Source of the DNA: a virus | Taxonomy: Duplodnaviria; Heunggongvirae; Uroviricota; Caudoviricetes | Virus record (IMG/VR): IMGVR_UViG_2778261136_000011 | Strand: one strand, 5' to 3' | Length of the DNA: 23,250 bases | In this document: positions 18,001 through 23,250 of the stretch, in pieces | Layout of the letters: every line of letters starts with the position of its first letter | How positions within the stretch are numbered: the first letter of the stretch is position 1 | Position numbers: made by a program

Positions 18001-21000
18001 ACATTTGAGAAGGCTTCAGGCTAGCTCATTGGCGTACCTCCTTCGGCGGTTCTGGCAGCGGCATCCAGAATAAGGCGTTCCCTAACCACGATAAAGTGCC
18101 GTCGCTCAACTCCACGTATTCCCCTTGTACCTGTCCTGCCATATACTCGCCGTGCTTTGAATAAATTAAAATCCAATCATCTTGAGCGGGGATTTGTGTA
18201 CTACAGCTTATCCAACGAGCCGGAGTTACCGGAGAGTTGCTCGACAGCTCGTTCAACTTGTAAGTTTGGCTTACAGGTTCGGCACCATGAAGCATGGAGG
18301 CGCGGCAGGAGTTCCAGCCTCTCACCTCTGCAATAGCATCGACCGCGTACATTTTAAGAGGGTTAGGCATTGGTTTTTCTTCAGGTACTACTGGCGCTGG
18401 AGGGGCAGTGTAAAGCTGGTGCGTTCCATCAGGTAGCGAGTGACCCACATACTCACCGAACCCGTCAATACACATGCCCCCATCTTCAACAATGCATTAC
18501 GCTACAGGCTCTGCTTCCAGCGATGCCAGTGCAATCCGTGCCAGTTCTTCCGCTTCTTCTGCTGGCAGTACAACGTTGCTACCAGGTCCGTATGTTTCGC
18601 GCCACTGCTTGATTGTCAGCAGTCGCTCTTTGGTAATAGTGATCATGCCGCGTTTCCTTCTTTCTTATTAACAATTACACCGTCATATATTTCATTAAGG
18701 TGCCCTCTCAACTCCATGCGCCTTAATGCAGATAACATGTAATCGCATTCAACCTGCTTATTTCCAGTAAATGGCTTATCGTCAGGATTACCCCAACAGC
18801 AATTACCCTTGGGCCACCCATGTACTTTCCGCACTCTTCCGTTAACAACGTGAAGTAATCCCCAGCCAGCTGGTAAATCCTCAACTGAAATAATTCCCGG
18901 CTCACTAATAAAGAATCGCCAGTCGCCCATTCCAAGAGACGGATTTTTACGAAAACGCTTTTTTCTATCTGCCAACAAGTCAACACGAGAACACTTCGCC
19001 TCTATCAGGCATGATGCTGAATTTCTGAATCCCATAGCATCTGGCTGTTCTCCGGTACTGGTTACAGCTATAAAGCGGTCATGAAAACAAACCTTGAACC
19101 CGTTGCGCTTAAGGAACTTGTACGCAATCTGACAGAGTTCGCGGTGTGTTAGCGCCATATCACTCTCCTTTGATGCCAGTGTTTACAACCTGACAAGCCT
19201 CTTTGAGCACCCAGTCAACAGCGTCTTTCCATGCTCCGGTTTCGGCTGGCGGATTCTCACGTTTTACCTGCTCATAGAAGCGCACTGCTTTAACCAGTCC
19301 TTCCGGCACTACTGGCGATGGCTGTTTAGCTTCTAAATCAGCAATTCTGTCAACCACGGCATCGACAGCATCTGAAAAACTGAAACAGTTACTCCACTCA
19401 GGCCTATCCCCGGTTGCTGCAAAGTACATATCAGCTAAAGCAGACTCAGCATGGTCACGCTCATTAATGAGTTGCTCTTCGCTTTTCTCCAGTTCTGCAA
19501 TGCGCTTACTTCCATCCGCGATTACACCCTCGTAATATTCACGCTGCTCGTTGAGTTTTGATTTTGCTGCTTCCAGCTCAACGCGCAGCTTCCCTACCGT
19601 TAGCGCAATATCCTCGTTCTCCTGGTCGCGTGATTTGATGTATTGCTGGTTTCTTTCCCGTTCATCCAGCAGTGCCAAGACGGTAGCCGGATTGGCTGCT
19701 GCTATGAATCGCTTATTGGCGCGATTATCTGGCCCTGAGCATGATGCTATGTAGTAATTGGCGTTCAGTCCGGCATTGGCAATAACCCCATAGTCATCAG
19801 TACACCATTCGCCTGGTGTTGCATTTTCTGCCGCCAGCCGCAGTGCTTGATAGCTAACTCCGTTCACTTCACACCTCTCTGTTTGTTGATAAGTTCAATA
19901 TCCTGCTGGCAACTGGCGCAAGCTCGGCATCCACGAACAGCCAGGCGTCGCCGCTCATCTATCGGATCGCCACACTCGCAACAATGAGTAGCAGATGGGG
20001 CATTACTATCGGATTTGTATTTTTGCAGGGAGAGATTGCGCTGCAATTCTTCGATTTCAGCGGCATTGTCGATGATATCTGCCATTTTCCTTTCCTTCAG
20101 GCATGAAAAAAGGAGCCGAAGCTCCTTTGGTATCAGAATTCAAATTGTCTTGCTCTTAGTTGCGCCAGCATACTTCTGGCCCTATGCACCATATAGTTGG
20201 CGGGATCAAGTTTTGCTGCTTCGCGGAGCAATGTGTCGCGAGTCCGGTTGGTTATATGACGAGTCTCGTAGGCCAGATCAAACAGCTTTCCATAGTAATC
20301 AGAGTTCAGTTCTCTCATGACGGGGTATAGCTGTTTACTGAGTTGTTGTGCTTTTTCCATCCAGAGTTGAACGTAGCAGAGCAGGATGATGTCTTCTGCT
20401 GTGAATTGAGGCTGAATATGAGGTTGTGGCGGTATAGCGCTTTTTTTGCTTCACGGTCCATAATATCCAATACCCAGCGACGGAACTCTTTGGCTACTGG
20501 AGTTGTTGCGAACATAGCTACCAGGTGGGCACTGCGTAGAGAGAAAATACGCACATCTTTCTCTCGTAAGCTATTGTTGATCCCGTTGAACCTCATTTTG
20601 AGGTTGATTGACATACAAGGAGTAAACTCATCCGAATTGCGGTTGTATATCTGGGTGATTTTATCGCCGCGCGAATACTCCAGTGCAGAAGCCAAAGTCG
20701 CGGCGGTGAACCACTGTTTGCCGTCGTGTTCGATCGTTTCAAGAACGTGGGATTTGAATATGAGTTGAGTGCTCATAGTTTTATGTCCTTGTATTTTTTG
20801 TTCAGAATCCCTGTGTTCAGCAGGGCGGTCGGGTACTTGAACACCGCATACAAGAACGGCCCGTATCCTTAGCCTTGCGGCTGTTTTTCGGTATACGCGC
20901 TACCCGACCATATCTGAAAAATGGACATAAAAAATCCGCATGACTGACGGGTGCGGCTTCCGCTTGTATAGGTGTGTTCAGCACCTTGGTGCGGAATATA

Positions 21001-23250
21001 TCCCCGCTAATACGGATTTGTCAAATCTGGTCTTAAAACTCGAATTGTCTTGCCCGCAGGCTTTTCAGCATTGGTCTGGCCCGCTGGACAACGAAACTTG
21101 ACTGGTCAAGCTGTGCCGCCTCCCGCAGTAGTGCTTCCTTGTTCTTCGTCACCATGTAGATGGTCTCAAACGCAATGTCATACAGCTTGTTCGTGTATGA
21201 GGAGTTCAGCTCTTTCATGATCGGATACAGGTGTTTGCTGAGGTCCTGGGCTTTTTCCATCCAGAGTTGCATGTAGCAGAGGAGGATGATTTCCTCGGCT
21301 GTGAATTGCTGCTCAGTTTGTACTGGCTGAATGTTGCGAAGTTTCTTTTCGCACTCGATGAAGTAGCGGCGTATCTGGCGACCTTTTTCGTTACGTTCAA
21401 CCATCGCAAGCTCTTTGGCTGTGTCGAGGGTGAGGTGGTAATCCTTGCGGCGGCGGCCTGGAGTTTTCGCCAAATTTGGCGAAAATAGAATGTAGTCTAA
21501 ATTTTCTACGAATCCATACTCGTTTAGCCTGGCCCGTATCCAGTTAGAAAAATCTTTACCTACCTCTAAAAATCCATGCAAATCACGCGCGTTCACCAGA
21601 AGCGTAGGTTCATTTGAGATTGTACCTTCAAACACAGGGATGAGTTGAGTGGTCATGATGACCTCCTTTGGCTTTTTTCGAGAAATGCCACCACAAGATG
21701 TGGTGCCGGGAGGCTCGAAACGGCCCAAAAGATACCGCGGACTTATTCCCCTTGCGGGTGTTGTATTCGTCGCCCTCCCGACATTGATCGGGGATGTGAC
21801 CGCACACTGTGCTATCACTGAATAACAGGCATAAAAAATCCAACACTGACGGGGTTGGTTTAATCCGCTTTTGGGAGGTTTTCGAGGCCTCGGCGCGGAG
21901 TATAGTCAGTATTGGACGCAGTCGTCAACCATCGCAAGCTCTTTGGCTGTGTCGAGGGTGAGGTGGTAATCCTTGCGGCGGCGGCCTGGAGTTTTCGCCA
22001 AATTTGGCGAAAATAGAATGTAGTCTAAATTTTCTACGAATCCATACTCGTTTAGCCTGGCCCGTATCCAGTTAGAAAAATCTTTACCTACCTCTAAAAA
22101 TCCATGCAAATCACGCGCGTTCACCAGAAGCGTAGGTTCATTTGAGATTGTACCTTCAAACACAGGGATGAGTTGAGTGGTCATGATGACCTCCTTTGGC
22201 TTTTTTCGAGAAATGCCACCACAAGATGTGGTGCCGGGAGGCTCGAAACGGCCCAAAAGATACCGCGGACTTATTCCCCTTGCGGGTGTTGTATTCGTCG
22301 CCCTCCCGACATTGATCGGGGATGTGACCGCACACTGTGCTATCACTGAATAACAGGCATAAAAAATCCAACACTGACGGGGTTGGTTTAATCCGCTTTT
22401 GGGAGGTTTTCGAGGCCTCGGCGCGGAGTATAGTCAGTATTGGACGCAGTCGTCAACCATCGCAAGCTCTTTGGCTGTGTCGAGAGTTAGGTGGTAGTCC
22501 TTGCGGTTGTGACCGCCTCTACCAGATGTTTGCTTTCCCAAATTGGAAAGCAAAATATAGTCTTGATTTTCAATGAATTCGTATTCTGAAATGCGATTTG
22601 TAATCCATGCCGCAAACACCTTTTTCACGCCTAAAAAAGCATGCAGATCGCGGGCATTGCAGAGTAGGGCTATTTCGTTGTCGATAGTGCCGTTGAATAC
22701 GGGGATGAGTTGACTGGTCATGATGACCTCCTTATTTGTTTAGTTTATAACCGCCAGTTAGTAGCTGGCGGTCGGGTGTCAACTGAGCCAAATAAGAAGC
22801 TCTGGGCATATTCCCCTTGCGGGTGTTGTATTACGCCTCTCCACCCGACCTTTGTACGGATGTAACTATGCCAAATTGCAGGCATAAAAAAGCCGCAAAG
22901 CTATCGGGTGCGGAGACCGCTTATTTGTTCAGTGCGATCAGTATGCGATAGCTTTGGCGGATTTGTCAAATCGTGCAGTAACATCCTTTTCTTCCTTGCC
23001 ATTTCTCAATGATGACAAAGGGTGGATTCGGATTGGTATTGGGACAAAAGTGAGACACACAAAGCTTTGCATCGGCTTACAAAGCTTTGCATGTTTTTCA
23101 ATGTTGGGACGTGTGAGCGCAGAAATGACGGGCTATCTAATTGATTTTAAACGATACGTAACCAACTTTAAAATCTTTGCACGCCAGTTCGCAGGTTTTA
23201 CAGCCAGTACAGCGGCTGGAATCGATAAAAAATCCATATTGTGTGGTCAT

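Follow-up and report, generated by a model that had tools for sequence, protein, structure and literature searches.

The immunity region immI of phage P1 is laid out in its GenBank record as promoters, a1, b1, a 77-nt c4 RNA, a2, b2, and icd-ant, with b2 at the ribosome-binding site (RBS) of icd and with C4 binding at a2/b2 recorded as repressing icd-ant translation. Here, we compare this and related systems with four tandem minus-strand units, each leading into an antirepressor-type gene, in a 23,250-nt stretch of Caudoviricetes DNA (IMG/VR record IMGVR_UViG_2778261136_000011), the whole of which is referred to as the window. The Rfam C4 model (RF01695, clan CL00128, gathering score 45 bits) scores 68.8 bits on P1 c4 and 74.9 bits on the CI RNA of P4, c4-a1b1 (RF03163) matches both P1 and P4, and isrK (RF01394) matches P4 in a leader about 110 nt upstream of CI that ends in a hairpin and a U-run. 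Briani et al. (2000, Mol Microbiol 36:1124) reportedly found that CI RNA and seqA are required for termination at P4 t1, located between the promoter and cI, and that CI is autoregulated in this way, and RNase P is said, from work by Hartmann et al. (1995, PNAS 92:5822) and Forti et al. (1995), to make the 5' ends of c4 and CI using a CCA-like tail. In P22 immI, the small RNA sar represses translation of the phage antirepressor. The P4 CI RNA is flanked by upstream and downstream copies of its target, seqA and seqC (PMC4825925). In Gifsy-1, a terminated short RNA, IsrK, and a read-through, translationally silent mRNA together control the antirepressor AnrP: IsrK pairs with the long RNA and switches translation on, the isrK leader forms alternative structures A and B, and a processed, stable RNA (STnc1160) lies downstream, an arrangement that the authors themselves liken to that of P4 CI, seqA, and seqC (PMC4825925).

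The RNA at the center of the window units belongs to another Rfam family. A preliminary description of this DNA had noted, before every antirepressor unit, a leader of about 130 nt containing CCGCAAGG and a long-range inverted repeat, GTCGGG...CCCGAC; both are present in all four units, and the Rfam search that it proposed identifies this leader as sRNA-Xcc1 (RF02221): all four matches cover the model in full (positions 1-87 of 87) and score 68.6-73.4 bits, the gathering score being 53. The inverted repeat is the closing stem of the Xcc1 three-way junction and CCGCAAGG the GNRA-capped tip of its second hairpin. In the list below, b' denotes the loop of the third hairpin, and a' the junction that joins this hairpin to the closing stem.

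20819-20909, minus strand: unit 1 sRNA-Xcc1 (Rfam 68.6 bits), b' loop UUCUUGUAU, a' junction UGUUCA.
21697-21782, minus strand: unit 2 sRNA-Xcc1 (73.4 bits), b' loop UCUUUUGG, a' junction UUUCGAG.
22225-22310, minus strand: unit 3 sRNA-Xcc1 (73.4 bits), a duplicate of the unit 2 element.
22762-22850, minus strand: unit 4 sRNA-Xcc1 (69.1 bits), a three-way junction in which b' is the third-hairpin loop CUUCUUAUUUG and a' the junction CAGUU.

What the preliminary description missed, in addition to the family itself, is a two-part complementarity that links each Xcc1 RNA to its neighborhood. In every unit, b' and a' are complementary to a region (a2b2) ending in the Shine-Dalgarno sequence of the downstream gene: UUCUUGUAU-gcgg-UGUUCA faces UGAACA-aaaa-AUACAAGGA in unit 1, UCUUUUGG-gccg-UUUCGAG faces CUCGAAA-aaag-CCAAAGGA in units 2 and 3, and CUUCUUAUUUG-gcuc-AGUU faces AACU-aaa-CAAAUAAGGAG in unit 4. 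The same two-part target is repeated between the promoter and the leader hairpin as a putative decoy (a1b1), which ends in GCGG instead of GGAG. On the minus strand of the 23 kb, each two-part target is confined to two places, immediately before and immediately after its own Xcc1 element. These complementarities to an RBS and to an upstream decoy therefore point to a P1 c4-type antisense module, and we consider it probable that each unit is such a module (equivalently, one of P4 CI/IsrK type) for its antirepressor gene, with sRNA-Xcc1 as the RNA. The downstream targets are as follows.

20774-20825, minus strand: unit 1 region 3' of Xcc1, with a hairpin CCCUG/CAGGG (20825-20809) displaying the a2-like CUGAACA, the target a2b2 UGAACAaaaaAUACAAGGA at 20804-20786, and the start codon at 20776.
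21654-21682, minus strand: unit 2 target a2b2 and Shine-Dalgarno sequence, start codon at 21656, duplex -21.3 kcal/mol.
22182-22210, minus strand: unit 3 target a2b2 and Shine-Dalgarno sequence CUCGAAAaaagCCAAAGGAGG, start codon at 22184.
22719-22745, minus strand: unit 4 target a2b2 overlapping the Shine-Dalgarno sequence AACUaaaCAAAUAAGGAG, start codon at 22721, duplex -23.2 kcal/mol.

Predicted duplex energies ranged from about -19 to -25 kcal/mol for an RNA with its own RBS (-25.6 kcal/mol for unit 1) and from -16 to -31 kcal/mol with its own upstream site, compared with -9 to -19 kcal/mol across units. Given this weaker cross-unit pairing and the distinct a and b sequences, the three variants in the window should be largely independent.

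Next, we evaluated whether this pairing extends across the family. Scanning viral contigs for the core of Xcc1 gave 120 loci, 89 of which were non-redundant and had full flanks after parsing. Stems were parsed in Python, since RNAalifold, given 68 Xcc1 sequences in a plain MAFFT alignment, had resolved no more than the apical stem and hairpin 3. When a two-part site was defined by the right order of segments, a loop helix of at least 7 bp, and a junction helix of at least 6 bp, one was found downstream at 57 of the 89 cognate loci compared with 7.6% of non-cognate pairs, and upstream at 59 of 89 compared with 9.5%. By duplex energy, the cognate flank ranked in the top 5% at 46 (downstream) and 55 (upstream) of the 89 loci. 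The loop target typically lies about 7-11 nt upstream of the start codon, and a promoter-like site precedes the upstream loop target by a fixed 26 nt (interquartile range 24-28) at 38 of 87 loci, compared with 3 of 87 control regions. Pfam searches of 65 downstream proteins returned KilA-N (12), Bro-N (10), Rha (7), ORF6N (6), P22_AR_N (5), and AntA (5), the remainder being small, unassigned open reading frames (ORFs). When ten sampled loci were checked against Rfam, nine were viral, and all nine of these were sRNA-Xcc1. A further scan of 596 Gb of genome contigs specified 16 bases, for which about 280 matches are expected by chance, and of its 120 matches only about 83 folded like Xcc1; its taxa (Pseudomonas, Xanthomonas, Haemophilus, Pasteurella, Neisseria, Bartonella, Brenneria, and others) thus serve as a rough guide only.

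Separately, ten Xcc1 copies in Xanthomonas, Rhodanobacter, Pseudoxanthomonas, and Dyella genomes displayed an upstream two-part site and none downstream under the criteria used. These may be integron-cassette copies without a regulated ORF.

The same RNA family, as judged by covariance model, includes sRNA-Xcc1 of Xanthomonas campestris, sXF1-5 of Xylella, and a copy in APSE, for which the literature view differs from ours: sRNA-Xcc1 is treated there as trans-acting and virulence-linked, with predicted unlinked targets, or is merely listed. Tandem sRNA-Xcc1 arrays have been reported in Xylella, and the APSE copy lies upstream of an ORF6N gene. We found no paper in the searchable literature that links sRNA-Xcc1 to c4-type cis-encoded targets, a decoy, or a terminator. 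If these RNAs acted in trans on genes of the host or on virulence genes, the proposal made for Xanthomonas and Xylella, their adjacency to antirepressors would be incidental; published predictions of many unlinked targets and an expression tied to HrpG/HrpX speak for this. However, the loop and junction co-vary with the adjacent RBS and upstream site (57-59 of 89 loci compared with 8-10% of non-cognate pairs), the two-part targets are found nowhere else in the window, and the adjacent genes are consistently of antirepressor type, so that we regard action on host genes as very unlikely.

Upstream of the Xcc1 elements, the promoter, hairpin, and U-run that the preliminary description reported for every unit were recovered in four of four, with exact hairpin coordinates and stem variants. 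A promoter scan found four sigma-70-like minus-strand sites at homologous positions (10-11 of 12 consensus bases), and the end of the -10 element lies 27-41 nt upstream of the hairpin in all four units.

20995-21024, minus strand: unit 1 promoter-like site, TTGACA-18-TATATT, 11 of 12 consensus bases.
21899-21928, minus strand: unit 2 promoter-like site, TTGACG-18-TATACT.
22427-22456, minus strand: unit 3 promoter-like site, TTGACG-18-TATACT, inside the end of the unit 4 ORF.
22940-22969, minus strand: unit 4 promoter-like site, TTGACA-18-CATACT.
20922-20969, minus strand: unit 1 leader module, with putative decoy UGAACAcaccuAUACAAG (20980-20963), GCGG, hairpin CCGCA/UGCGG (20956-20936), and U-run (20934-20929).
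21826-21874, minus strand: unit 2 leader module, with putative decoy (21886-21868), GCGG, hairpin CCAAC/GUUGG (21858-21840), and U-run.
22354-22402, minus strand: unit 3 leader module, with putative decoy CUCGAAAAccucCCAAAAG (22414-22396), GCGG, hairpin CCAAC/GUUGG (22386-22368), and U-run, an exact duplicate of unit 2.
22879-22926, minus strand: unit 4 leader module, with putative decoy a1b1 ACUgaaCAAAUAAG (22933-22920), GCGG, hairpin CCGCA/UGCGG (22913-22893), and U-run (22892-22886).

Each window hairpin is followed by A or C and T6, and the CCGCA/TGCGG and CCAAC/GTTGG stems differ at three positions per arm with pairing intact. Among homologs, the layout is an upstream loop target, GCGG, 2-6 nt, a stem of 5-7 bp with a loop of 9-12 nt, 5-8 U, and RYGYC. 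Their stems vary widely (CCGCA, CCAAC, AUUCAC, AACCGCG, GUCAC, CCACG, GCCUU, and others) and covary, while the CCCGUCAG-like core of the loop is conserved, the GCGG between decoy and hairpin is invariant, and RYGYC after the U-run is conserved. These conserved features, which lie at 20929-20963, 21833-21867, and 22886-22919 in the window, recur in the homologs and in P1. A check by eye of the CCCGUCAG loop and of GCGG against the Xcc1 closing stem and second hairpin revealed no co-varying pairing partner. As each U-run is followed by an AUG, a leader peptide was also considered and rejected: the resulting ORFs have 5, 9, and 46 codons and are not conserved.

A covariance model of the leader module yielded 83 matches in 89 sources, including all four in the window (51.6 bits for unit 4), and at every locus checked the match lay directly upstream of an Xcc1 element on the same strand. 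The preliminary description had proposed aligning the leaders and evaluating covariation among homologs. The leaders align well, and in 81 distinct homologous leaders the stem was paired in 80.5% of cases, compared with 64.4% in shuffles and 37-43% in slid controls. Double-change cells numbered 96 against 32.5 +/- 4.5 expected (none of 500 shuffles reached 96), a count made on a model-fitted alignment, which favors pairing. In a model-free check, a helix of at least 4 bp ending at most 2 nt from the first U-run after the loop target was found in 61 of 65 loci, compared with 25% of shuffles. These results bear out the suggestion that the compensatory changes in the stem reflect a selected RNA structure: the preliminary description was right on this point, and it is covariation and position, rather than stability, that argue for such selection.

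Two further explanations bear on these leaders. One holds that the repeats have no function, being by-products of cassette recombination and duplication with compensatory change by chance; it would account for the exact duplication of two units, for the truncation of the ORFs at a common junction, and for a thermodynamically unremarkable hairpin. Covariation of the hairpin across 81 leaders from unrelated contigs speaks against it, as do Xcc1 scores that exceed the Rfam gathering threshold and co-varying target sites that would not arise by chance; we strongly disfavor this explanation and regard it as extremely improbable. The other casts the hairpin and U-run as a mere insulating terminator against read-through from the preceding unit or gene, without regulatory link or functional short RNA. 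The U-run directly 3' of each hairpin and the distance of 75-100 nt between the stop codon of the previous ORF and the hairpin in the tandem array would suit such an insulator. However, every unit has a promoter downstream of the preceding stop codon and ahead of the hairpin, and unit 4 is without a phage gene upstream. Moreover, the position of the hairpin is fixed relative to the decoy (it starts within about 10 nt) and to the promoter 26 nt upstream of the loop target, not relative to upstream genes, and the conserved 9-12-nt loop, preceding GCGG, and following RYGYC are nothing that a generic terminator needs. Taken together, this makes a pure insulator quite unlikely.

The c4-type reading is further supported by the comparison with P1. 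The window units share with P1/P7 immI the order of parts, i.e., a promoter, a1-b1, an RNA of about 80 nt carrying a' and b', a2-b2 at the next RBS, and an antirepressor; three features of c4-type systems, namely a'/b' facing a downstream RBS, an upstream copy of the target, and an antirepressor-type gene downstream, are found in the window. The topology of P1 c4 is likewise that of Xcc1, with a closing stem, a tetraloop hairpin, a hairpin with b' in its loop, an a' junction, and an RCC(A) tail. In the window, the tail after the closing stem reads ACCA in units 2 and 3, GCCA in unit 4, and GCCC in unit 1, the Rfam consensus being aCCC, and a short hairpin starting in this RCC(A/C) tail follows the Xcc1 element (20809-20825, 21683-21699, and 22751-22771). 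In unit 1 and many homologs, the loop of this hairpin shows an extra a2 copy, e.g., CUGAACA or CUCAAAA.

The likeness to P1 includes the GCGG-hairpin-U-run element after b1. Directly after P1 b1 stands GUGCGGacaaCCGCA-12 nt-UGCGGUAUUUUUGUGUCC, nearly the unit 1 sequence outside the loop, and the resulting GCGG-CCGCA...UGCGG hairpin and U-run (P1 4276-4319, about 25 nt before c4) are unannotated in the P1 record. With a leader model built without P1, this site was the best match in 20 kb of P1 (18.9 bits, rough E 0.002). Several features nonetheless set the window units apart from P1: their RNA belongs to sRNA-Xcc1 rather than C4, its closing stem is 9 bp compared with about 17 bp, and its GNRA-capped second hairpin is longer and contains the internal loop AAUACAA. 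In addition, the target is the RBS of the antirepressor itself instead of that of the small upstream gene icd, and several modules are stacked in tandem, unlike in P1.

By layout, the window leaders also resemble those of isrK and c4-a1b1: a promoter-proximal leader carries target copies, a hairpin, and a U-run, and lies upstream of a c4-type RNA. As in the window units, the antisense RNA of P4 sits between two target copies, the upstream one followed by a hairpin and U-run, and the window hairpin matches the IsrK / P4 leader terminator by position. The outcome differs, however, since in P4 it is premature transcription termination of replication genes and not a translational block of an antirepressor; the P4 leader also has its targets in two conserved hairpin loops and a 5-nt terminator loop, unlike the window leaders, and our leader model had no match in P4. 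The proposed window layout is equally that of Gifsy-1 IsrK/STnc1160/orf45-anrP, with a promoter-proximal short RNA, a leaky terminator, and a processed downstream RNA. There, however, IsrK exerts its effect via orf45, an upstream ORF, with translational coupling, whereas the window pairing sites lie on the Shine-Dalgarno sequence of the antirepressor itself, and the isrK covariance model is without a match in the window. P22 sar also differs, as it is an overlapping antisense RNA from the opposite strand, whereas the window RNA is encoded upstream on the same strand and pairs through short loop sequences. Overall, the analogy drawn in the preliminary description to prophage small RNAs that gate antirepressors fits, with a P1 c4-type module as the counterpart.

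The steps of termination, processing, and translational repression at the window locus, and the direction in which the decoy acts, are inferred as follows. A transcript would start at the sigma-70 promoter, its first 25 nt or so carrying the decoy a1-b1, followed by GCGG, the weak hairpin, and the U-run. The hairpin may act as a leaky intrinsic terminator, with some RNAs ending there at about 50-60 nt and others reading through. Read-through would produce the Xcc1 three-way junction of about 87 nt, in which an RCCA or RCCC tail follows the closing stem in tRNA-like fashion and which is probably excised as a stable small RNA in the manner of c4 and CI by RNase P. The a' and b' segments would then pair, in cis or in trans, with a2-b2 over the downstream Shine-Dalgarno sequence and block translation of the antirepressor, and the upstream decoy would compete for a' and b'. 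This competition might titrate the antisense RNA and thus turn translation on, as with IsrK; alternatively, pairing with the decoy might raise termination at the hairpin, so that the RNA autoregulates as at the P4 terminator t1. As the three window variants differ in their a and b sequences, the action of each module should be limited to its own gene.

An alternative close to this scheme is a cis-only riboregulator, in which the 5' untranslated region acts within its own transcript: pairing of Xcc1 a'b' with a2b2 would hide the RBS, pairing with a1b1 would free it, and no stable trans-acting RNA would be made. A single transcript carries all three partners within a span of about 250 nt, and the resulting scheme is similar to structures A and B, the alternative folds of the isrK leader. 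Moreover, the upstream site of units 1 and 2 outpairs their RBS site (-29.3 and -31.4 kcal/mol, compared with -25.6 and -21.3 kcal/mol at the RBS) by pairing further into the 3' arm of the closing stem, which fits alternative folds of the primary transcript. On the other hand, the founding member of the Xcc1 family, in Xanthomonas, was identified by Northern blot and rapid amplification of cDNA ends as a discrete 88-nt RNA (PMC2996969). Both c4 and CI act in trans, and a terminator between decoy and RNA would part the partners on many transcripts. Likewise, the closing stem and RCCA tail match a feature that reportedly directs RNase P processing of c4. We therefore regard a purely cis-acting element as rather unlikely, although the two readings are not exclusive and a cis-acting step is compatible with a c4-type module.

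Besides the use of a model-fitted alignment, several observations weigh against a c4-type module with a terminating leader hairpin. The Rfam C4, isrK, and c4-a1b1 models have no match in 20000-23250 even at E <= 10, so that homology to c4 rests on the architecture and leader hairpin and not on RNA sequence. The window hairpins are weak (a 5-bp stem, a 9-11-nt loop, and -3.6 to -4.8 kcal/mol), a terminator scan calls none of them, and hairpin stability is no higher than that of shuffled sequence (median z 0.11). When compared with the usual features of an intrinsic terminator (a stable G+C-rich stem, a 3-8-nt loop, and a U-run of at least 5), the window hairpins have the U-run, alongside a 5-bp stem, a 9-11-nt loop, and a stability z of about 0. 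While the general idea of the preliminary description, a small RNA family or attenuation switch controlling antirepressor expression, fits these modules, its antitermination variant is at most a candidate: when an evolved antiterminator was looked for, the probability of the terminator stem was lower in native than in upstream-shuffled leaders in 32 of 54 cases, a split that speaks neither for nor against it. The a-site of unit 4 is only 4 bp. Although four copies are present as described, units 2 and 3 are identical by duplication, so the window holds three independent leaders and one compensatory event. Finally, truncation or frameshift affects three of the four downstream genes, and some modules may therefore be decaying.

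These units lie at one end of a lambdoid, Shiga toxin (Stx)-phage-like prophage. The right end of the window is the 5' end of ynfG (4Fe-4S subunit; 23167-23250, minus strand), cut by the prophage at the same insertion site as in the Shigella phages 75/02 Stx and POCJ13, and units are numbered 4 to 1 inward from this junction. The genes of the array are as follows.

22434-22721, minus strand: unit 4 gene, a truncated AntA N-terminal domain ORF of 95 aa, start codon at 22721.
21906-22184, minus strand: unit 3 gene, a truncated AntA N-terminal domain ORF, start codon at 22184.
21033-21656, minus strand: unit 2 gene, a full-length antirepressor of 207 aa, start codon at 21656.
20133-20776, minus strand: unit 1 gene, BRO-family antirepressor-like and frameshifted according to the RefSeq annotation of a near-identical locus, start codon at 20776.

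The unit 2 protein combines an AntA N-terminal domain (Pfam, 1.1e-26) with a P22_AR_C C-terminal domain (1.4e-07). The RefSeq annotation of the near-identical locus has no RNA feature at these modules. The duplication noted above is an exact tandem repeat of 528 bp (21397-21924 = 21925-22452) that spans the end of an AntA ORF, the promoter, leader, and Xcc1 element, and the start of the next ORF. The closest Escherichia coli genomes and phages have one copy of it (a 2551-base query is covered in 2023 bases), so the duplication could be a recent event or an assembly effect.

Both truncated AntA ORFs share the same ...KELAMVDDCVQY* end (22434-22463 and 21906-21935), and the DNA encoding this end also provides the promoter (TTGACG-18-TATACT) for the unit that follows, the unit 3 promoter thus being carried by the 3' end of the unit 4 ORF. 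This suggests that antirepressor cassettes were joined by recombination at a conserved point of antA. Beside the prophage/ynfG junction, about 85 bp upstream of the unit 4 promoter, two direct copies of the palindrome-containing GCAAAGCTTTGT (23055-23094, minus strand) may represent a candidate protein-binding site. Elsewhere in the window, a hok/sok-type toxin-antitoxin locus lies at 17730-17904 on the minus strand (Rfam sok, 112.6 bits), where a 70-aa Hok/Gef-like ORF (17580-17792, minus strand) overlaps the sok match.

The control logic proposed here is that of c4, CI, and IsrK and hence known, as is the Rfam family; what appears new is the c4-type interpretation of sRNA-Xcc1. We lean toward extending it to the family as a whole, somewhat favoring the view that sRNA-Xcc1 is a second structural class of c4/CI-type immunity RNA and not a host-targeting virulence small RNA. 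Such RNAs may be tRNA-like, probably released by RNase P, and may use two freely variable segments to occlude the RBS of the antirepressor-type gene that follows (KilA-N, Bro-N, AntA, ORF6N, Rha), always on one transcript with their matching decoy and with a conserved-loop attenuator hairpin, an element also present, unannotated, in P1.

Antirepressors can turn lambdoid and Stx prophages lytic without cleavage of the main repressor, and a gate on their synthesis therefore bears on toxin-phage induction. If this family-wide view is true, Stx-type prophages would stack modules of differing specificity, which would allow independent, RNA-gated, and possibly SOS-independent derepression and toxin-phage induction. 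The analysis also provides a testable mechanism for an Rfam family now reported in genome and transcriptome studies as a "virulence sRNA" without defined targets, with the target of each Xcc1 member predictable from its own hairpin-3 loop and junction, and it points to a hairpin and U-run so far unannotated in the classic P1 c4 leader. Since the recognition segments vary freely, the module would represent a natural programmable translational repressor, mutually independent of its neighbors and equipped with a built-in decoy.

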